Below are positions 2,342 through 17,835 of a stretch of DNA of 32,000 nt, piece after piece. The first letter of the stretch is position 1. Each line of letters opens with the position of its first letter. The notes under the pieces are model-generated. The model made no database searches, was not told where the DNA came from, and saw nothing but the letters and a program-made list of their open reading frames with translations. Position numbers and translations under genes: made by a program. This stretch comes from Nostoc punctiforme PCC 73102 (GTDB lineage Bacteria; Cyanobacteriota; Cyanobacteriia; Cyanobacteriales; Nostocaceae), in assembly GCF_000020025.1 (NCBI RefSeq), contig NC_010628.1:4530001-4562000 (forward strand), read 5' to 3'.

Positions 2342-3673
2342 CTACTTAGAACGGCGCGATGCAGACGAACGAGCCCCAGGCTTCTCGCCATTAGTCGCGG
2401 GTGGTGCTGCTTTACGTTTAGCCGATGTCCGTGGTAACGGTTTAGGAGTCCGAGGCGATCGCTTTTCACCTCCAGATTTGGGTCTGTGTTGCCGTCCATT
2501 AGGGATTGGTTCGGCCGTTGTATCGGGGTTAGGGCCAAAGCCAGCAACTACTTCCCTTGGCAAACGCTGCTCAATCAGTTTTTCGATATCTGTCAATAAA
2601 CTGTATTCATCGACGCACACCAGCGATACGGCTTCACCTGACGCACCAGCACGACCAGTTCGCCCAATGCGATGAACATAATCTTCCGGTACATTAGGTA
2701 AATCGAAGTTGACTACATGGGGTAGTTCGCTGATGTCAAGACCTCTAGCAGCAATGTCTGTCGCCACCAATACCTGTAAGCTACCATTCTTGAACTTTGC
2801 CAGAGCATTGGTACGCACCGGCTGACTCTTATTCCCGTGGATTGCAAGTGCTTGAATGCGGTCTTCACCCAACTGCTTGACTAAACGGTCAGCGCCATAC
2901 TTAGTACGAGTAAACACTAGCACTTGATACCAATTATCGCGCCGAATCAGGTGAGCAAGTAATTGGCGTTTCTTGTCACGGTCTACTTGGTAAATTTTTT
3001 GGGCGATCGTCTCGGCGGTGACGTTGCGGCGTGCTACCTCAATCATCTTCGGGTTATTGAGTAGTCCGGCGGCTAGCGCTTTAATTTTGTCTGAAAAAGT
3101 AGCGAAGAATAGCAAATTTTGTCGCTGTTTGGGCAAAATTGCAAGGATGCGGCGGATATCATGGATAAAGCCCATGTCCAGCATCCGATCTGCTTCATCT
3201 AGAACTAAAACCTCAATATGTGACAGGTTCAGCGTGCCCTGCTGTACGTGATCCAGCAATCGCCCTGGAGTAGCAACCAAGATATCCACTCGGTTCTTCA
3301 AACGCTGTTTTTGCAGATTAATACCGACTCCCCCAAACATCACCATTGAGTTGAGCTGCAAGTATTTGCCGTACTCGCGCACGCTTTCTTCCACTTGGGC
3401 TGCGAGTTCACGAGTCGGGGTGAGAATCAGTGCCCGGATCGGGCGGTATCCATTAGATGTAACTTTGACGTTCTTCTCGGACGATAACCGATGTAGAAGC
3501 GGTAAGGTAAAACTAGCGGTTTTTCCAGTGCCAGTTTGTGCCCCAGCTAGTAAATCGCTACCCGATAAGACGGCAGGAATCGCCTGTCTCTGAATTGGCG
3601 TAGGTTCGGTGTAGCCTCGCTCTGTAACCGCACGGATAATTTCATTGGACAAGCCGAGAGTAGAAAAATTCAT
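2342..3673 (-). CDS. crhC: DEAD-box RNA helicase, CrhC-like (FAT-box variant)
   Basis: Q motif (GYTEPTPIQ), motif [19 protein letters not shown] (VLDEAD), motif III FAT instead of SAT (3098-3106), [10 protein letters not shown], and a basic C-terminal tail. I take the ATG at 3673 (MNFSTLGLS...) as the start; the 43 upstream codons in the track ORF resemble no helicase sequence. Confidence 0.9.
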
Positions 3674-3910
3674 AAAACTCCAAAAGTAACATCGGCCTGT
3701 CGCCAATGGCGGCGTCAGTCTTAGGCGGACGGATAAAAAAGTCTTGAAAGGCTGGATGGGCAGTAACGCAAAGACTGAAGAGCGAGTGCCGCAGTCCCAC
3801 ATTCTAACAGATTGTAGTTCATTGTGTGGTTAAAGTTGCTCTGATTCAGTGTTGTGTTAAATTAGCATTACTTGGAATGTAAAGTATTGAACAATTAGGA
3901 GAAATTCGTT

Positions 3911-10434: not shown

Positions 10435-12039
10435 CTAATTATTATCATCTTGTAGCTTTTCTTGCAATTTGCGATCGCTCTGGGGTTGATTATCAGTTGG
10501 TGAATTTTGCTTTTCCAGTGTTGGTACTACTACGGCAGAAGGATCTGACTGTTTGGATTGTGTCGGTGGTGCTGCTGGTATAACCACAGAATTTGGTGGA
10601 ATTATCGGTTGAGGGGAAGCAGAATTCTGATTAGAAGCGGGTGAGTTATTTTGTGGCAATGGTGCGGGAGAAGCACTACGAGTTGATCGGATCGCCCGTA
10701 GTTTCTCTACTAGCGAGGGTGTGGGTGAAACGCTAGGTGAAGGTGCAGATTGCTGCAAATCGCCTCGTTGTGAATCTCCTGTAGGGCTACTAGGAGTTTC
10801 TTCGGGGGAAGAACGGCGATTACGTCGGCGCTGCTTGGAATTAGAAAGAGGTGCTGATTCTGTTCTTGAGGTGGTGTTAGTCTCTGCACCATTTTCTACG
10901 CTAGGTACTTTCGCGGCTGGCTGTTGAGTAGGCTGTTCAAAAAGCGGCTTTGTAGTTGGCTGCGGCTGAGATTTGGGTAAAATGCTAGTGATGCCAAAAC
11001 CTGCGGTAGCAGCAACTAAGGCTACACCCATACCAATGAGTATTTGAGATGATCCCGGTTTTTTTGCCAGTGGGTTTCCTTTAGAGATGCCTTGGTTGGG
11101 TTGTGCAAGCACAGATGGCTTATGAAGGCGATTTCGGCCAGTTTTCCCAAGTAAAGTTGCAGCTTCTTTGGCAGATAAATTGACAGTTGGGACTGCATAA
11201 GTTGCTAAGGCTTCCGGTGTCATCAGCGCCTCATTTCCAGGTAGCAGTTGTAACCACTCGGCAACTGTTGCTGGTCGAAAACGAGACTCCACCGCCATAC
11301 CCCGCATTATTGCCTGATTGACAGCAGCACTCAAGTGTGGTTGTAATTCGCGCGGGGAAGGCATTTGTTCGCGATCGCGCAATAATGCTGGCATAGGAAC
11401 TTGTGCTGTCAAAAGTGCATACAAAGTTGCGGCTAAACCATAAACATCTGTGGCGGGTGTGCGCGGTGCTTGTGTCAAATACTGCTCAATTGGAGAATAG
11501 CCTTCAGAAACTAGACCAGTGTGAGTCTGTCTGACACCGCCATTAAATTCCCTGGCAATGCCAAAATCAATTAGTACTACTTCTTGTGTTCCTTGACGAA
11601 GAATAATATTATCTGGTTTGACATCTCGGTGCAGCAAACCATTGTTATGTACTACCTGTAAAGCTGCTCCAATTTGACGAATGTAATGAATTGCTGTGGC
11701 TTCAGGCAAAGTTATTCCTGGTAATACAAATGCGTCTCCCAAGGTTTCACCACGAATGTATTCCATTACCATGTAAGGCAGTCCAGCTTCCACAAAAAAG
11801 TCACTGACTCGGACTATATTTGGATGAATACACGTAGCTAATCGTCTGGCTTCATCTTGGAATTGGCGCTCAAATTTCGCAAAATCAGGATGTTGTCGCA
11901 GCCGTTCATTGATGGTTTTCATCACCACCTCCTGACCTAAGTAGTGATGGGTAGCTTTAAATGTAATACCAAAGCCACCCCGCCCTATTTCTTGAATTAG
12001 GGTATATTTTCCATCTTGCAAAATTGTGCCTGCTAACAT
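10435..12039 (-). CDS. Ser/Thr protein kinase with TM segment and P/S/Q-rich C-terminal region
   Basis: GRGGFG...[20 protein letters not shown] and SPIE (APE-like). A hydrophobic helix ([22 protein letters not shown]) is followed by a low-complexity tail. Confidence 0.9.
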
Positions 12040-12358: not shown

Positions 12359-12670
12359 TTTCGTCTTAATTCAGCACAAGCTGAAACACTCAAAGCACTC
12401 TCCCACCCAGCTATTCCCTGCTACCTTGACTACTTTGAGCTAGATTCACCCAACAGCAGAGGATTTGCACTCGTACAAAGTTATATCTATATCCCAGCCC
12501 AATCTCTAGAAGCACAACTCAAAATTGGGCGTAGTTTCAGTGAAGAAGAAGTTAAGAAACTAGCAAAAGCCATTCTAGAAATTCTCAAATATCTGCATGG
12601 CCGTCAAACGCCCATAATTCATCGTGATATCAAACCAAGCAATATTCTATTAATAAATCGCTCTGGTTGA
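12359..12670 (+). pseudogene. Remnant of a Ser/Thr kinase gene (subdomains III-VIb only)
   Basis: Frame 2 is open from 12359 to the TGA at 12668-12670 with no start codon. It translates to ...AETLKALSHPAIPCYLDYFELDSPNSRGFALVQSYI...ILKYLHGRQTPIIHRDIKPSNILLINRSG*. The glycine loop/VAIK and DFG/APE halves are missing. Sequence upstream (about 12230-12358) has stops in all frames. Confidence 0.7.
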
Positions 12671-12706
12671 GCGATTGGCTAGGCTTACCAATTACTAGAG
12701 AGTAAA

Positions 12707-14035
12707 TCACAAACTAAATTCGGCAGCGCCATTTTCATCCACATTTGGATTTTTACCCATAGCAGTAGGTTTAAATTTAGAGCCATGAATTAATTCAGCA
12801 AACACAATTCCTGGATTTTGGTGAAGAATATTCAGCACACTCATAAAATCTCGCACAATTTCTCCTGGTGTCAGTAATGCTTCCGCACCCAAACGATTAA
12901 TAATTTCTTGCACAAACTCCTTCAATTCACGATTTGTCAAAGTCTGTTCATACCCAAAATTAAGTGCATGAATCTCAGCTAAACGTTGCAGAAGCGTCAA
13001 TATTTCTGCTTCACTCAACGGATTTAGCCGAATCACTGGCCCTGAATTTTCTTGAACATTAGCTTGTGCAACAAAACGACTTTCTTTTGTGCGTCTTTGC
13101 CAAGCTTGGTCTGCAAAAAGTCCGCGTTTGGGATCTTCTAAAAATTTAGTTGTTCCACCAACGACAATGCCAAGATGTTCAGCTTTACACTGCATGGTGT
13201 CGTTAAACATTGCCAGGAGTCGATTATAATTCTTTTCGCGCGTGACTGTAGTAGATATTTGATATAAATGTACAGCTTCATCAACTAAAATTAACAGTCC
13301 TTTATAACCAATCTCAGCGACAAATTTCGCAAACAGTTTTATATAGTCATACCAACTATCATCATCAATAATGACGCGCACTCCTAAAGCTGCTTTCGCC
13401 TCAACTTTAGTAGTAAATTCTCCCCGCAGCCAGCGCATCGCCGCATTTTTTAAATTATCATCATCCATTCGGTAGCCACGCCAATAAGCGATAATCACGC
13501 TACCAAAATCAAAACCGTGAACTAAACCTTCAATATACTGAACTACTTCCCTAATTTTTGATTCAACTTGGTCATCAAAACCATCGTCATTGGGACGCAT
13601 TTCAGTTTCTTTAACCACTTCTTGTTGAATTTTATTAATCCATCCTTCTAAAATCGAAACTAAAGCACCACCATCAGGGCGAGTTTTTGTAGCTAGGTGG
13701 CTCATTAATTCTCTATAAGTGGCTACACCTTCATTGTTGCTTCCAGCTAATCGGCGTTCAGAGGATAAATCAGCATCAGCTACTACAAAACCTTGCTCCA
13801 TAGCACGGTTACGAATTAGTTGCAGTAAAAAACTTTTCCCGGAACCGTAGTTACCAATTATGAAGCGAAATGCTGCTACACCTTCTGCAATATCATCGAG
13901 ATTTTGTAATAGGCTTTTTAGTTCTTTTTCTCGACCTACTGCAATATATTCAACTCCTACTCTTGGTACTACTCCCGCACCAAGGGAATTGATTAAAGCA
14001 GTGGAGATTTTTTTCGAGATTTTGAGCTTTGCCAT
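12707..14035 (-). CDS. P-loop ATPase, DUF2791 / BrxC-BrxD-type BREX ATP-binding domain family
   Basis: N-terminus LINSLGAGVVPRVGVEYIAVGREKEL, Walker A GNYGSGKS (13832-13855) and Walker B LLILVDEA. Length (442 aa) and layout match DUF2791 (PF10923) as I recall it. Confidence 0.7.
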   Translation of the reverse strand: MAKLKISKKISTALINSLGAGVVPRVGVEYIAVGREKELKSLLQNLDDIAEGVAAFRFIIGNYGSGKSFLLQLIRNRAMEQGFVVADADLSSERRLAGSNNEGVATYRELMSHLATKTRPDGGALVSILEGWINKIQQEVVKETEMRPNDDGFDDQVESKIREVVQYIEGLVHGFDFGSVIIAYWRGYRMDDDNLKNAAMRWLRGEFTTKVEAKAALGVRVIIDDDSWYDYIKLFAKFVAEIGYKGLLILVDEAVHLYQISTTVTREKNYNRLLAMFNDTMQCKAEHLGIVVGGTTKFLEDPKRGLFADQAWQRRTKESRFVAQANVQENSGPVIRLNPLSEAEILTLLQRLAEIHALNFGYEQTLTNRELKEFVQEIINRLGAEALLTPGEIVRDFMSVLNILHQNPGIVFAELIHGSKFKPTAMGKNPNVDENGAAEFSL

Positions 14036-14131
14036 GTATTACACTTCACTTTATTCTAAACACATAAGCACGTAGTAAATAGGTAAGGTACATATTCACC
14101 TTACTACTAATCTTACGACGGCAATAATATT

Positions 14132-15469
14132 TTAATTTGGCGACGTATGTCTAGCCATGAGACTTTCATGCATTACAATCATTTTTTTGACATAGGTAAT
14201 ATGCTCATGGTAAACTTCTGGACTTTCCGAATCAGAGTTAATTATTAATTCCCCAATAGTATCATTTGCCCGTTCATTTATAGAATCGATTAAAAGATTT
14301 GGCATAGTGATATTTGCTTCGGCAATTTTTTTAATAGCAGCTTTGGGATTATCTTGTTCAACTATAGCTTTTAATACTTGTAGTTCGTATCCTGGGAGAT
14401 TTTCTAAAAAATTAGTCCATTCTTCAGGTATATTCTCTGATGTATCAATTTCCGAATTGCCTATAACTGCTGTAGTTTCCATTATTTCAGAAAAAGGAAA
14501 CAATTCAGTATCATCTTCTTGAAAACTATCTGCTAAAGGCTCTTGATTAAATGTTTCTAGTTGTTGGAGTAATTCCCATACTTGATTTTGTAATGAATCT
14601 CGTTCTTCTTGCAATAATGAAATTTGCCCTTGCAACTGCTGTAATTCGGATTTGTGTTCTACTAGTTTGGTTTGTGAAGAATGTAGGATAGCTTGAATAT
14701 TTTCTCTTTCAGTTTTTGTCGCTACCAGCAACTGATTTTTTTGCGTTGTCTCAACTTCTAACTCTTGAATTGCAATTCGCAGTTCGTATAGTTTTTCTTC
14801 TAATTGGGGTTTGAGTCTGCCTAAAAGAGTTAAATTACTTTCAACTTCTTGTCTCTCTTGCTGGAGTTCTGAAATTTGGCTTTGCAATTGCGTGATTTCA
14901 GCACGAGATACATTACAATTCGACTCTAGACGACGCTTCTCTGCTGTAAGTATAGAAAAAGCATTATTCAATTCTGTTTGATTTTTCTGCAAGTTATTAA
15001 TTTCAGTTTGCAGACTATTTATTTCAGTCTCTAGCTGTTTTTTTTGTCCGGCAAATGTTCTTAATTCTCGATGTAAACTATCCCTTTGGTTACGGCTTTC
15101 TGTAACTTGATTTTGCAGTTGCTGTGACTCTGCATATAATAAATTATGATGTTCTTCGATTTGATTTATTTCTCTGACAAGACGAGCTTTCAACCCTTCC
15201 ATTTCTTTAATTCGTTTGCGGAGAGAACCTAAAACAAACATTTCATAATTTCTCCGCCGTTTATCTACAAATAATGCTGCTGCATAGATAGTAGCGGCAG
15301 TAATTAAACCTGTGAGAAAAGCTTTATTAAAATCCCAGCTTGGGACGAGACTAAGACCAAAACTCACACTAAAGGCAACTATTCCTAGTATAAATCGATT
15401 GCTGATTGTTACTGATTGCATATTGCTCGTTTTTAGCGTAGTGAAATTATCAGAATAAGTAAGTTTCAT
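14132..15469 (-). CDS. Membrane-anchored coiled-coil protein with C-terminal TerB-C-like domain
   Basis: Two predicted TM helices (aa ~24-44 and 50-68), then a Q/E/L-rich heptad coiled coil of about 230 aa (aa ~80-305) and an acidic linker. The C-terminal ~80 aa (14195-14431: LPGYELQVLKAIV...MPNLLIDSINERANDTIGELIINSDSE) resembles the TerB-C signature (..INE.A.d.iGd.liE..). Confidence 0.6.
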   Translation of the reverse strand: MKLTYSDNFTTLKTSNMQSVTISNRFILGIVAFSVSFGLSLVPSWDFNKAFLTGLITAATIYAAALFVDKRRRNYEMFVLGSLRKRIKEMEGLKARLVREINQIEEHHNLLYAESQQLQNQVTESRNQRDSLHRELRTFAGQKKQLETEINSLQTEINNLQKNQTELNNAFSILTAEKRRLESNCNVSRAEITQLQSQISELQQERQEVESNLTLLGRLKPQLEEKLYELRIAIQELEVETTQKNQLLVATKTERENIQAILHSSQTKLVEHKSELQQLQGQISLLQEERDSLQNQVWELLQQLETFNQEPLADSFQEDDTELFPFSEIMETTAVIGNSEIDTSENIPEEWTNFLENLPGYELQVLKAIVEQDNPKAAIKKIAEANITMPNLLIDSINERANDTIGELIINSDSESPEVYHEHITYVKKMIVMHESLMARHTSPN

Positions 15470-15722: not shown

Positions 15723-17078
15723 TTAATCAGAAGTATTGGATGTATTGTTATTTGCATAAAAAAGTCTTAAATCTGCTTTTAAGAAATCAACAAACTGCCG
15801 TGCTGTGCGTCCAGAACGACCGTTGTGGCGAGTTGCCCACTGTAATGCTTGAAACTCTAAATTTTCTTGGGTAATATTAATTTCAGCTTGTGCAGCTAGA
15901 TGTTGTACTATCTTCAAATAAGTTTTCTGATCGGCTGGTTCAAAGGTCAAGGTTAAACCAAAGCGATCGCTAAACGAAAGTTTCTCCTGCATCGTATCCC
16001 AAGCATGGATTTCCTCAGTATCCTTGGGGGTAGGTCTATCCACAAAGAACTCCCGAATCAAGTGGCGGCGATTGGAAGTAGCATACACAACTACATTTTG
16101 CGGCCGCGCGGTTAAATTACCTTCTAAAACTACCTTGAGCGCTTTAAAGGCATCATCATCTTCTTCAAAGGAAAGATCGTCGACAAAGATAATAAACTTT
16201 TGTGACACTCCTCGTAAATGTTCCACAATTTCTGGTAAGTCTTTTAAATCAGATTTTGTCACTTCCAATAAGCGGAGACTACGCTCGCTATATTCATTCA
16301 ACAAAGATTTCACTAAAGAAGATTTGCCAGAACCACGACTACCGTAAAGTAATACATGAAGTGCCATCTCTCCTGATAATAAAAACTCTGTATTTTTTAA
16401 CAAAGCATCTCTTTGAGACTCGTAACCTACAAGCGCACTCAACTTAACTGGATCAGAATATTGGATACCGATAAACTGCCCAGCTTGCCAACGTAAAGCG
16501 CGATATTCTGCAAATAAACCAGAGCCACATTGCCGATAATAAGCCGCCAACTCTTTTACAGCATCACCCCAATTATCTAAGTCTTGCAAATATGTAGCGA
16601 ACTTTGTCTCTACTCCTACGAATTCTTGCTCTTTATACCACACTACTGGCGAAATCGGCATGTGAGCTACGTTTTGTATCCACTCACTCAAAGAGGCGCT
16701 GCTACATTCATAGAGACTTTGCAATATTTGTAAATCATGCTGTACTGCTGCTACTAAAGCTGGGGGCAATTCTTCAAATTCTTTCACTTCAGCCAGCTTT
16801 GTAAAAGGATTCTTAGAGAAGAGAAGTTGAGTAATTAAATAGTCTTCCCAGTTTTGATTTTTAGCAGCTAAAGCGTGGAAGTAACGACCGTAGGCTTGGA
16901 GACAACCACGTGCATCAGAGTCAGTGTAACGTATAGCTTGCAACAGTTCCAGAAATGCTATCCCTACTTCGCCTTGGAGAACAGACTGGTACAGTAAAAG
17001 TGAGTCCGCTTGACGCTGGAGATATTGGACTTTTGTATATAAGGAAGTACTTGTTATTGGCATCGCCTGATTATCCAT
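15723..17078 (-). CDS. AAA-type ATP-binding protein, DUF815 family
   Basis: Walker A GSRGSGKSS and Walker B FIIFVDDLSFEEDD, followed by ATSNRRHL, and the C-terminal block SGRTARQF. ATG at 17078 (the track starts one codon earlier, at a TTG). Confidence 0.75.
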   Translation of the reverse strand: MDNQAMPITSTSLYTKVQYLQRQADSLLLYQSVLQGEVGIAFLELLQAIRYTDSDARGCLQAYGRYFHALAAKNQNWEDYLITQLLFSKNPFTKLAEVKEFEELPPALVAAVQHDLQILQSLYECSSASLSEWIQNVAHMPISPVVWYKEQEFVGVETKFATYLQDLDNWGDAVKELAAYYRQCGSGLFAEYRALRWQAGQFIGIQYSDPVKLSALVGYESQRDALLKNTEFLLSGEMALHVLLYGSRGSGKSSLVKSLLNEYSERSLRLLEVTKSDLKDLPEIVEHLRGVSQKFIIFVDDLSFEEDDDAFKALKVVLEGNLTARPQNVVVYATSNRRHLIREFFVDRPTPKDTEEIHAWDTMQEKLSFSDRFGLTLTFEPADQKTYLKIVQHLAAQAEINITQENLEFQALQWATRHNGRSGRTARQFVDFLKADLRLFYANNNTSNTSD

Positions 17079-17165
17079 CAATCAACTGTGTGGTATAGCT
17101 ATTTAGCTATGGTAAATTGTCTGCTGACCTTGGCAGTAAAGTCAAAATCTACAGATGTATTAACA

Positions 17166-17486
17166 ATGAATTTAAGTATAATTGCTGCTTTCGCCTACGG
17201 CATATTAGCGATCGCTGGTGGCATTATCGGCTATATTCAGGCTAGAAGTAAGGTTTCACTGTTAAGTGGTAGTATTAGCGGTTTTTTACTAATACTTGCC
17301 GCTTACTTTCAACTCCAAGGACAAACCTGGGGTTCGATTTTAGCAGTGTTAGTTACTGCTGTTTTAGTGGTAGTCTTTGCAGTTCGACTAGCTAAAACAC
17401 GCAAGTTTATGCCGGCGGGATTAATGACGATTTTGGGGATGGTGGCATTGGCGGTGATGGTAAATCAAATTGTGGCTTTAAGGTAG
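17166..17486 (+). CDS. Small membrane protein, TMEM14/UPF0136-like (4 TM)
   Basis: From the ATG at 17166: MNLSIIAAFAYGILAIAGGIIGYIQARSKVSLLSGSISG..., with four hydrophobic helices. The upstream 26 codons of the track ORF overlap the divergent promoter region. Confidence 0.65.
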   Translation: MNLSIIAAFAYGILAIAGGIIGYIQARSKVSLLSGSISGFLLILAAYFQLQGQTWGSILAVLVTAVLVVVFAVRLAKTRKFMPAGLMTILGMVALAVMVNQIVALR

Positions 17487-17671: not shown

Positions 17672-17835
17672 GCATTAACAATGCAAGCCAACGCATTAAC
17701 AATGCAAGCCAACGCACTAACAATGCAAGCTAACGCATTCACGAGGCAAGCCGACGCATTCACGAGGCAAGCCGACGCATTCACAATGCAAGCCAACGCA
17801 TTCACAATGCAAGCTGATGCACTAACAAAGCATGG
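17672..17835. repeat. 21-bp tandem repeat, about 7.7 copies (consensus GCATTMACAATGCAAGCCAAC)
   Basis: Units start at 17672, 17693, 17714, 17735, 17756, 17777 and 17798, with a partial unit at 17819. Units 1, 2, 6 and 7 contain an internal palindrome GCATT-N3-AATGC. Units 4 and 5 are an identical variant (GCATTCACGAGGCAAGCCGAC). Confidence 0.95.

Follow-up and report, generated by a model that had tools for sequence, protein, structure and literature searches.

The sepT block of Nostoc punctiforme as a probable, vertically inherited derivative of a Shango-like trio

The sepT locus of Nostoc punctiforme

This report concerns a block of three genes in a 32,000-nucleotide stretch of the Nostoc punctiforme PCC 73102 chromosome, which is called the window throughout; all coordinates are window positions unless a locus label (L) precedes them. 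Two of the genes lie on the minus strand and are separated, by their coordinates, by a spacer of 96 bp (14036-14131). The upstream gene of this pair is the sepT ortholog (All2460 family; 14132-15469), which encodes 445 amino acids (aa) from the first ATG, and the downstream gene (12707-14035) encodes an SngB-type DUF2791 AAA+ ATPase of 442 aa. Further upstream on the same strand, the first gene of the block (15723-17081) encodes a DUF815 AAA+ ATPase (PF05673, E value 6e-96). The reading preferred here, to which we assign a probability of about 0.72, is that SepT, the SngB-type ATPase and the DUF815 protein are a vertically inherited, SepT-type derivative of a trio like that of the defence system Shango, and that they act in the septum and the cell wall.

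The pair had been described before from the DNA letters, as two minus-strand genes 96 bp apart, of which one encodes two transmembrane (TM) helices, a coiled coil, an acidic linker and a TerB-C segment, with the membrane anchor and coiled coil replacing TerB-N, and the other a DUF2791 P-loop ATPase, both with homology to Shango/TerB-type systems. These parts of the original prediction were borne out by the open reading frames (ORFs) of 445 and 442 aa and by the profile searches given below, whose matches are much stronger than chance would produce. Consensus scans for promoters and terminators returned 20 and 5 matches versus 15.4 and 3.7 in shuffled sequence, which is not above expectation.

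Domain architecture of SepT

SepT starts with a TM hairpin (15263-15400, minus strand like all parts of the gene; aa 24-69), whose segments, aa 24-45 and 50-69, were called from hydropathy in 19-residue windows with a Kyte-Doolittle value of at least 1.6. The hairpin is followed by a coiled-coil stalk of about 235 aa (14555-15259; aa 71-305), which matches SMC-type NCBIfam models and many coiled-coil Pfam families. Q, L, E and N make up 51% of the stalk and its hydrophobic residues show heptad-like spacing; the SMC match reflects only this coiled-coil composition. The adjoining linker (14438-14554; aa 306-344) has no K or R, carries a net charge of -10, is predicted to be disordered (predicted local distance difference test, pLDDT, below 50) and is among the least conserved regions of SepT.

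The C-terminal TerB-C end domain (14150-14437; aa 345-440) is the part that links SepT to Shango. In a profile search, it matches PF15615 (TerB_C) with an E value of 2.2e-17 and 64.1 bits, well over the cut-off of 26.3 bits, and the PADLOC SngA model matches with 57.5 bits, covering only model positions 263-526 of 528. Residues 342-413 align with the C-terminal tail of Paenibacillus SngA (40% identity over the last ~75 residues, E value 4e-12), while the remainder of the protein does not align. No TerB_N match was obtained in a Pfam profile search at E values up to 1, and TerB proper (PF05099) is absent among the best 25 of 41 families found at the same threshold.

The core of the end domain (aa 346-413) is the most conserved region of SepT in all four lineage groups (93, 70, 55 and 45%), and the domain contains a conserved helix, TMPNLLIDSINERANDTIGELI. 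An AlphaFold model of aa 296-445 shows a disordered linker followed, at about aa 345-440, by four helices, a beta-hairpin and a final helix (pLDDT 80-89). The top 50 Foldseek matches of this domain are nearly all LysR/MarR winged-helix proteins (template modelling (TM) scores 0.55-0.63, E values of 7.5e-3 or higher). With a net charge of -9, and with D, E and N in place of basic residues in its putative recognition helix, the domain is more likely to dock a protein than to bind DNA.

The start of sepT is ambiguous (15421-15469, minus strand): the ORF from M1 encodes 445 aa, and the NCBI annotation begins at M17 (15421) and gives 429 aa. Conservation of the 16 additional residues within Nostoc is 63%, and the N. 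azollae, Fischerella and Mastigocladopsis entries of the homolog table in PMC10653889 carry a similar prefix ('...TLKTSNMQS').

The SngB-type ATPase

The ATPase covers almost the full length of the family profile PF10923 (BrxC_BrxD; E value 3.2e-167, 557 bits, positions 1-411 of 414) and scores best with the PADLOC SngB model (E value 2.4e-177, 588 bits, positions 1-425 of 439). Matches to the BREX protein BrxD are far weaker, with 177 bits (E value 1.4e-52) in PADLOC and 179 bits for the NCBIfam BREX_BrxD equivalog, which is under the cut-off of 350 bits. Both nucleotide-binding motifs are intact. In a 62-sequence family alignment, G64, G66 and K67 of the Walker A motif GNYGSGKS (13832-13855, minus strand; aa 61-68) are invariant, and D252 and E253 of the Walker B motif LLILVDE (13277-13297, minus strand; aa 247-253) are kept in at least 90% of the family.

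An AlphaFold model of the ATPase reached a pLDDT of 94.2 and a predicted TM-score (pTM) of 0.90. Its nearest folds in the PDB are the RdrA ring, the N-terminal part of BrxC, ORC/Cdc6, TnsC and STAND NLRs, with TM-scores of 0.28-0.39, and sequence searches of the PDB returned nothing usable for any of the three proteins or for the ATPase profile. To judge from the model, the protein is an AAA+ switch resembling ORC and STAND proteins, without a closely related solved structure.

Orthology with SepT of Anabaena

SepT (All2460) of Anabaena sp. PCC 7120 was described by Velazquez-Suarez, Springstein et al. (mBio 2023; PMC10653889). The window protein shares 63% identity and 82% positives with it over 397 aa (E value 3e-179) and, when read from M17, is WP_041565500.1 of N. 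punctiforme PCC 73102 in Data Set S1 of that paper. In Anabaena SepT, two TM domains at the N-terminus are accompanied by three coiled-coil regions, and CDD returns matches to SMC and TerB-C, of which the SMC match led the authors to suggest a role in 'chromosome biology'. The protein is found at the cell periphery, at midcell and in mature septa, and deletion of its TM region abolishes the septal localisation. It interacts with itself and with MreB, RodA, FtsW, SepF, ZipN and SepJ, and cells without it differ in size, in the incorporation of peptidoglycan and in the septal nanopore array (PMC10653889). Septal localisation and the peptidoglycan and nanopore phenotype are established for Anabaena PCC 7120 only.

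The same study reports a conserved block, all2459-all2460-all2461, which is present in all heterocyst formers tested and in which the flanking genes are termed 'P-loop NTPases', as in MinD/ParA; All2459 (442 aa) co-precipitates with SepT-GFP (PMC10653889). In the window, sepT is flanked by two P-loop NTPase genes as well, the 442-aa DUF2791 gene downstream and the DUF815 gene upstream. By sequence and gene order, the pair can be taken as the N. punctiforme sepT and the All2459 equivalent, and the DUF815 gene as the All2461 equivalent; All2459 and All2461 are positional counterparts, and All2459 also agrees in length. The claim that this architecture had not been described is overturned by the 2023 paper, which covers the ortholog with its block, localisation, interactors and mutant. 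Helicase, phage, defence, ATPase, DUF2791/BrxD and Shango are nowhere mentioned in that paper, and the literature searched holds no paper joining SepT/All2460 with Shango. The genes themselves (SepT, All2459 and All2461) are already known; what appears to be new and unreported is the bridge between SepT and Shango with its helicase-bearing intermediates.

Inheritance and constraint in Nostoc

A scan with one genome per species revealed relatives of the ATPase in 301 genomes, and the Nostoc figures refer to the best 80 of these 301. All 80 loci belong to Nostoc, three of them carrying other labels as metagenome-assembled genomes (MAGs), and the identity of their ATPases is 94-98%. The ATPase gene is found in every one of them, with a mean identity of 96.3% and a ratio of nonsynonymous to synonymous substitution rates (dN/dS) of 0.073. 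SepT is present in 78 of the 80 (87.1%, dN/dS 0.160), the DUF815 gene upstream of sepT in 76 (91.4%, dN/dS 0.135) and the gene for the membrane protein Tmemb_14 in 71 (87.7%), followed by a fructosamine kinase in 38 (89.9%, dN/dS 0.151) and an M16 peptidase in 36 (89.8%, dN/dS 0.165). The ATPase is the most constrained gene of the block and is under stronger purifying selection than the housekeeping neighbours. The synteny ends directly downstream of the ATPase in these loci.

No plasmid copy with more than 60% identity was found among 72,556 plasmids. We conclude that DUF815, SepT and the ATPase form a vertically inherited chromosomal block that lies next to housekeeping genes and outside defence islands. 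The original prediction had taken the pair for a conflict system and had named universal synteny across Nostocales beside housekeeping genes as the finding that would speak against it and for a structural role; this synteny is what was found, together with an ATPase dN/dS of 0.073 versus 0.15-0.17 for the neighbours.

Shango kinship and helicase-bearing relatives

The nearest ATPases outside the cyanobacteria are those of Saccharibacillus (56% identity), Paenibacillus cellulositrophicus (54.5%), P. peoriae (52.8%) and Bacillus thuringiensis (46.5%). In Paenibacillus and B. thuringiensis, the ATPase is encoded in tight operons between a TerB_N+TerB_C protein and a DEAD helicase, which is the canonical Shango arrangement, and the genuine Paenibacillus SngA contains TerB_N and scores 360 bits on the PADLOC SngA model. 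In a neighbour-joining (NJ) tree, the cyanobacterial ATPases form a clade in 100 of 100 bootstrap replicates, and their union with the Paenibacillaceae is recovered in 70 of 100. The canonical SngA of B. thuringiensis pKK1 (L082, 5071-7011) carries an N-terminal TM2 membrane domain ahead of TerB_N and TerB_C, so that membrane anchoring occurs outside the SepT type as well. Behind a Paenibacillus Shango operon, a co-oriented gene of 461 aa (L081, 10543-11928) gives a weak GdpP-like GGDEF match (27.6 bits, under the cut-off) and may be a fourth Shango component.

The distribution beyond Nostoc was followed through distant SepT homologs from the homolog table of PMC10653889. In a Chroococcidiopsis TS-821-like lineage and a related one (L089 and L091), Tmemb_14 and DUF815 are followed by a SepT-like gene with a conserved tail, the ATPase, a DEAD helicase and then a 4HBT gene, and the ATPase and helicase genes overlap by 4 bp. 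In PADLOC, the helicase of L091 scores 836 bits as a full-length SngC, and this type also matches BrxHI with 452 bits; the L091 ATPase matches SngB with 575 bits. In the heterocystous Fortiea contorta (L096), DUF815, SepT and the ATPase are followed after 14 bp by a helicase of 720 aa (L096, 8777-10939), and Nodularia has the pair only. ATPase identity amounts to 86-88% within Nostocales, 71% to L091 and 55% to Paenibacillus. Helicase identity is 73% between Fortiea and L091 and 47-49% to Paenibacillus, and DUF815 identity is 75-77% within Nostocales and 68% to L091. These congruent divergences support co-descent of the three genes.

A helicase-anchored metagenome scan yielded 80 loci, and the 66 with at least 1.5 kb upstream were classified by the position of the ATPase. 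It is adjacent to the helicase in 18 loci, lies on the same strand beyond an insert of 0.3-3.8 kb in 13, and is missing from 35, in which the helicase stands alone. Where the ATPase is present, the SngA position is occupied by a SepT-type protein in at least 23 loci and by a canonical TerB-N protein in 1. The interval that separates sngB from sngC is highly prone to insertions, and metagenomic loci with insertions in it include L106, L113, L114, L119, L120 and L136.

An SngC-type helicase is present neither in the window nor within 10 kb of the pair in the 80 Nostoc loci, and no nuclease adjoins the pair in the window. The only helicase-like ORF of the window is a generic DEAD-box gene (2342-3802) that is 21-23% identical to SngC. 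Pseudogene remnants of a helicase or an ATPase were not detected by tblastn (E values up to 10) downstream of the window ATPase, in Nodularia or in the UBA11149 gap. In N. desertorum, a helicase apparently lies about 48 kb downstream of the pair on the same strand, as suggested solely by a match in length between the orphan-helicase contig JAESFO010000073.1 and the contig with the pair. Helicases that are 88-96% identical to the one on this contig form a Nostoc-like cluster with unconserved flanks. The best match of the helicase among the plasmids is the same Paenibacillus operon.

The description of the pair as helicase-less thus holds for the N. punctiforme locus, where none is adjacent, but not necessarily for the genome, and in Fortiea, in the Chroococcidiopsis-like contigs and in many metagenomic loci the helicase gene still adjoins the block. 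Loss of the helicase at the base of the Nostocales was rejected because Fortiea has the full trio, and simple loss in Nostoc is weakened by the 35 orphan-helicase loci, by the Nostoc-like cluster and by the case of N. desertorum. In Nostoc, the helicase may have been separated from the pair by the insertion-prone region, or it may have been lost.

In Coleofasciculus, Kastovskya and UBA11149, the ATPase is absent, the SepT tails have diverged to a point at which TerB_C is undetectable, and DUF815 is kept, in Kastovskya together with Tmemb_14. In Gloeocapsopsis (L093), the SepT tail, the ATPase and the helicase are all gone together. The relatives thus present a series of states: a full trio, a trio split by insertions, the pair, SepT with a decayed tail, and SepT with its tail lost. 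If the tail binds the ATPase, lineages with a Nostoc-like tail would be expected to retain the ATPase; across lineages, the co-occurrence of tail and ATPase in these sequences is suggestive only.

Three SepT-like loci add observations of their own. Past the tail-less SepT-like gene of the Gloeocapsopsis-like locus, a TIR-NACHT gene (L093, 7117-9561) occupies the position of the ATPase and helicase of the relatives. A 5.5-Mb genome (GCA_034541955.1; L094, 6001-10351) encodes a SepT-like protein of 530 aa with TerB_C, has no DUF815 or ATPase at this place, and carries the SepT-like gene convergent to matches for FraC (PF24301), DUF5357 and ABC2_membrane, an arrangement that resembles the fraC-fraD-fraE septal-junction operon. 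Another SepT-like gene, whose tail is Nostoc-like, lies on a 2.4-kb MAG contig (L095, P0348) and bears the label 'Candidatus Obscuribacter', a relative of cyanobacteria that does not photosynthesise; the label could be a binning error or could indicate a wider distribution of SepT.

Proposed mode of action and alternatives

The following working model is proposed. A membrane hairpin and a coiled-coil stalk would have taken the place of the TerB-N half of SngA. The TerB-C end domain and the SngB ATPase would have been retained, and many lineages would also have kept the SngC helicase. SepT would dimerise and sit in the cytoplasmic membrane at the division site and in mature septa, as shown in Anabaena. 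Its acidic, winged-helix-like end domain, placed on a flexible linker, would recruit the SngB-type ATPase. Co-precipitation of the two proteins has been shown, and we infer that the end domain is the docking site because it is the most conserved region of SepT, has disappeared along with the ATPase and helicase in Gloeocapsopsis, and has no recognisable TerB_C in three lineages without the ATPase. The ATPase, with its intact Walker motifs and its ORC/STAND-like fold, may work as a nucleotide-dependent switch or oligomer on the scaffold that SepT provides. As its output, the system would govern both lateral and septal peptidoglycan synthesis as well as the nanopore array of the septum, consistent with the phenotype and interactions shown in Anabaena, and would do so through contacts of SepT with FtsW, RodA, MreB, ZipN, SepF, SepJ and penicillin-binding proteins. 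The helicase, where retained, is a candidate downstream partner, in Nostoc possibly in trans.

A more far-reaching statement is that SepT, presented in the literature as a cytoskeleton-like protein found only in multicellular cyanobacteria, is the SngA subunit of a vertically inherited Shango-type machine, framed by DUF815, that was co-opted from phage defence for septum, peptidoglycan and nanopore biogenesis and in Nostoc would still work with a helicase encoded elsewhere. Conversely, the sites and partners of SepT would show what the TerB-C/SngB half of Shango monitors in its native role, which would be the machinery that builds the cell wall at the membrane. Taken jointly, these two statements are tentative, and we rate their chances at somewhat less than even.

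Several points weigh against the derivation and the model. The metagenomic loci are without taxonomy and are called cyanobacterial from synteny and identity, the ATPase tree is a simple NJ tree with bootstrap, and an unlinked sngC in a Nostoc genome is inferred for N. desertorum alone. The Foldseek matches of the end domain are weak and the confidence of its model is only moderate. Docking of the ATPase by this domain is further affected by an imperfect correlation, since the SepT-like proteins of L086, L094 and L095 keep TerB_C at 33-45 bits without an adjacent ATPase; a strict rule by which the TerB-C tail is conserved only beside the ATPase accordingly holds only in part. The co-immunoprecipitation of SepT and All2459 comprises 3 peptides, and the paper contains no all2459 mutant (PMC10653889). 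Finally, sepT mutants are viable and their phenotypes are mild, which leaves room for a surveillance or defence role with pleiotropic effects on the envelope.

Such a role is the alternative that survives best, although we consider it unlikely. The block would still be an anti-phage module of the Shango type, with SepT as the anchored sensor, the ATPase as the transducer and an unlinked helicase as the effector, and the envelope phenotypes would be side effects. A locus that is fixed and vertical in 80 Nostoc species and in the heterocyst formers tested (PMC10653889), flanked by housekeeping genes and without plasmid copies in the comparison above, is hard to reconcile with this, as is an ATPase whose dN/dS lies under that of its housekeeping neighbours, unlike in patchy, fast-turnover defence genes. 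The SngB and SngC models match strongly and the tail of SngA has its homolog in SepT, as expected for a defence module, and Shango has been shown to protect Escherichia coli and Pseudomonas aeruginosa against phages. TerB proteins have also been proposed in the literature as membrane-surveillance modules, RdrA and BrxC, which are defence ATPases, are among the best structural neighbours of the ATPase, and the variable spot downstream of the ATPase carries Uma2 genes and, in Gloeocapsopsis, the TIR-NACHT gene. The phenotypes of SepT were, however, measured phage-free and are accompanied by specific interactions with the divisome and elongasome (PMC10653889), and SepT-like and DUF815 genes persist after loss of the ATPase and helicase in Coleofasciculus, Kastovskya and UBA11149.

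Clearly less probable is a membrane-tethered DNA-handling machine at the closing septum of polyploid cells, in which the end domain, the ATPase and SngC would clear or process chromosomal DNA and the effects on the wall would be secondary. The end domain has a winged-helix-like fold, but its net charge of -9 and its acidic recognition helix make DNA binding unlikely. The helicase is long conserved, with an identity between Fortiea and L091 (73%) that is reported as the same as for the ATPase, but its unlinking or loss is tolerated in Nostoc. Anantharaman et al. reportedly predicted in 2012 a membrane-linked DNA-processing complex of a TerB-N/C protein, an ATPase and a helicase. SepT is located at midcell and binds divisome proteins, and its SMC match prompted the suggestion of chromosome biology (PMC10653889); this match reflects only the coiled coil, and no DNA segregation phenotype has been reported for sepT mutants.

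A two-gene conflict system that lacks a helicase altogether, is mobile and was inserted recently, disrupting a kinase gene, can practically be dismissed: a kinase remnant does adjoin the stop codon of the ATPase and the local GC content is somewhat low, but the pair is at the same place in 78-80 of the 80 Nostoc species and coexists with an intact kinase in 17 loci, in related genomes the same frame includes the helicase, and integrase, transposase and repeat borders are lacking.

If the block is indeed a derivative of a Shango-like trio, it would be a clear case of an immune module that was retained or exapted as a core cell-biology function, supported by visible intermediates. Shango, a defence system with an unsettled mechanism, would gain a fixed and slowly evolving cyanobacterial form in which the localisation, interactors and phenotype of the SngA equivalent have been measured and an SngB is known to co-precipitate with it. 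This leads to the hypotheses that the TerB-C end domain of Shango is an ATPase-docking module and that what Shango monitors is the machinery of the envelope and peptidoglycan. As regards multicellularity in cyanobacteria, the prediction is that All2459 and an unnoticed SngC-type helicase belong to the SepT pathway.

Flanking genes and the kinase remnant

The DUF815 gene has a wider association with sepT than the ATPase gene has. It is also located upstream of the SepT-like genes of Coleofasciculus, Kastovskya, UBA11149, the Chroococcidiopsis-like contigs, Fortiea and Nodularia. In PADLOC, the protein has no defence match better than an E value of 5e-5, and the literature searched gives no function for DUF815. 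In one study, Slr0930, the DUF815 protein of the unicellular cyanobacterium Synechocystis, co-precipitated with the RNA-binding protein YlxR. Divergent to the DUF815 gene lies the gene for a Tmemb_14 membrane protein (17088-17486, plus strand; PF03647, E value 1.5e-25), which is found beside DUF815 also in Kastovskya, the Chroococcidiopsis-like contigs, Gloeocapsopsis, Nodularia and about 10 metagenomic loci. It belongs to the conserved chromosomal frame and is not necessarily part of the system.

Downstream of the ATPase and adjoining its stop codon, a remnant of a convergent membrane Ser/Thr kinase gene (12359-12688, plus strand) shows 81% identity to aa 60-167 of an intact 477-aa kinase (L011) and contains in-frame stops. 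Compared with other Nostoc loci, it has two internal deletions, and Nostoc sp. LEGE 12447 (L001) has a remnant with the same decayed structure. In 17 other Nostoc loci, the ATPase is followed at a distance of 52 bp by an intact convergent kinase gene; the kinase at 10435-12039 of the window is full-length and intact, and is a separate gene. The truncated kinase noted in the original prediction is thus real, but the proposed acquisition of the pair by insertion was rejected on the basis of the synteny and of the deletion structure of the remnant. The remnant is context and lies outside the system, and it opens an insertion- and deletion-prone region downstream of the ATPase. The window has no integrase, transposase or repeat borders flanking the pair, around which the GC content is 0.34-0.39, somewhat under the window mean.

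Instead of the remnant, other Nostoc loci carry epimerase-like, aspartoacylase-like, Uma2, cupin or LRR protein genes or the intact kinase downstream of the ATPase. The 0-7 kb past the ATPase are a turnover hot spot in the Nostoc loci L001-L080, with Uma2 endonuclease-like and cupin genes, a 1193-aa LRR protein and small HEPN/toxin-like genes. On the other side of the block, a 21-bp tandem repeat (17672-17832; consensus GCATTAACAATGCAAGCCAAC, 7.7 copies, 87% matches) lies between the Tmemb_14 and fructosamine kinase genes and yields spurious repetitive ORFs on both strands. Between 22000 and 24000, the GC content is 0.33 versus about 0.43 elsewhere, with a positive GC skew.

Comparison with known systems

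The ATPase belongs to the same Pfam family, PF10923, as BrxD of the BREX BrxD/BrxHI type (DUF2791 ATPase and Lhr-like helicase), but it scores 177 bits with BrxD and 588 bits with SngB. No PglZ, PglX, BrxA, BrxB or BrxC gene was found among the pair-flanking ORFs that were scanned against Pfam. Bunzi BnzA, Dionysus DinB and Ter TerB likewise place a TerB-related module at the membrane. In these proteins the module is TerB proper (PF05099), whereas SepT has only TerB-C, and their partner genes, such as those for pore-forming toxins, are absent here. With SepJ, ZicK/ZacK and SepI, SepT shares a coiled-coil-rich architecture and a location at the septa of heterocyst formers, and SepJ binds SepT. 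These proteins have no sequence relationship to SepT, and no pairing with a defence-type ATPase or helicase is described for them in the literature consulted.

Shango SngABC (Millman et al. 2022; Johnson et al. 2022/2023) is much closer. The pair shares with it the SngB-type ATPase, the homology to the SngA tail and the gene order, with the SngA-like gene followed by SngB, and close cyanobacterial relatives of the pair carry full-length SngC directly downstream. In contrast to Shango, the pair lacks TerB-N and has a TM hairpin and a coiled coil of about 235 aa in its place, the Nostoc pair has no helicase in the window or within 10 kb in the 80 loci, and DUF815 is added upstream. The Nostoc block is also chromosomal, vertical, strongly constrained and outside defence islands, and the phenotype of SepT concerns cell-wall and septum morphogenesis, whereas that of Shango is phage resistance. 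The sepT block of Anabaena has the same protein architecture and the same three genes, with no structural difference from the block described here. The difference is one of interpretation, as the neighbours of sepT are treated as generic P-loop NTPases in PMC10653889.

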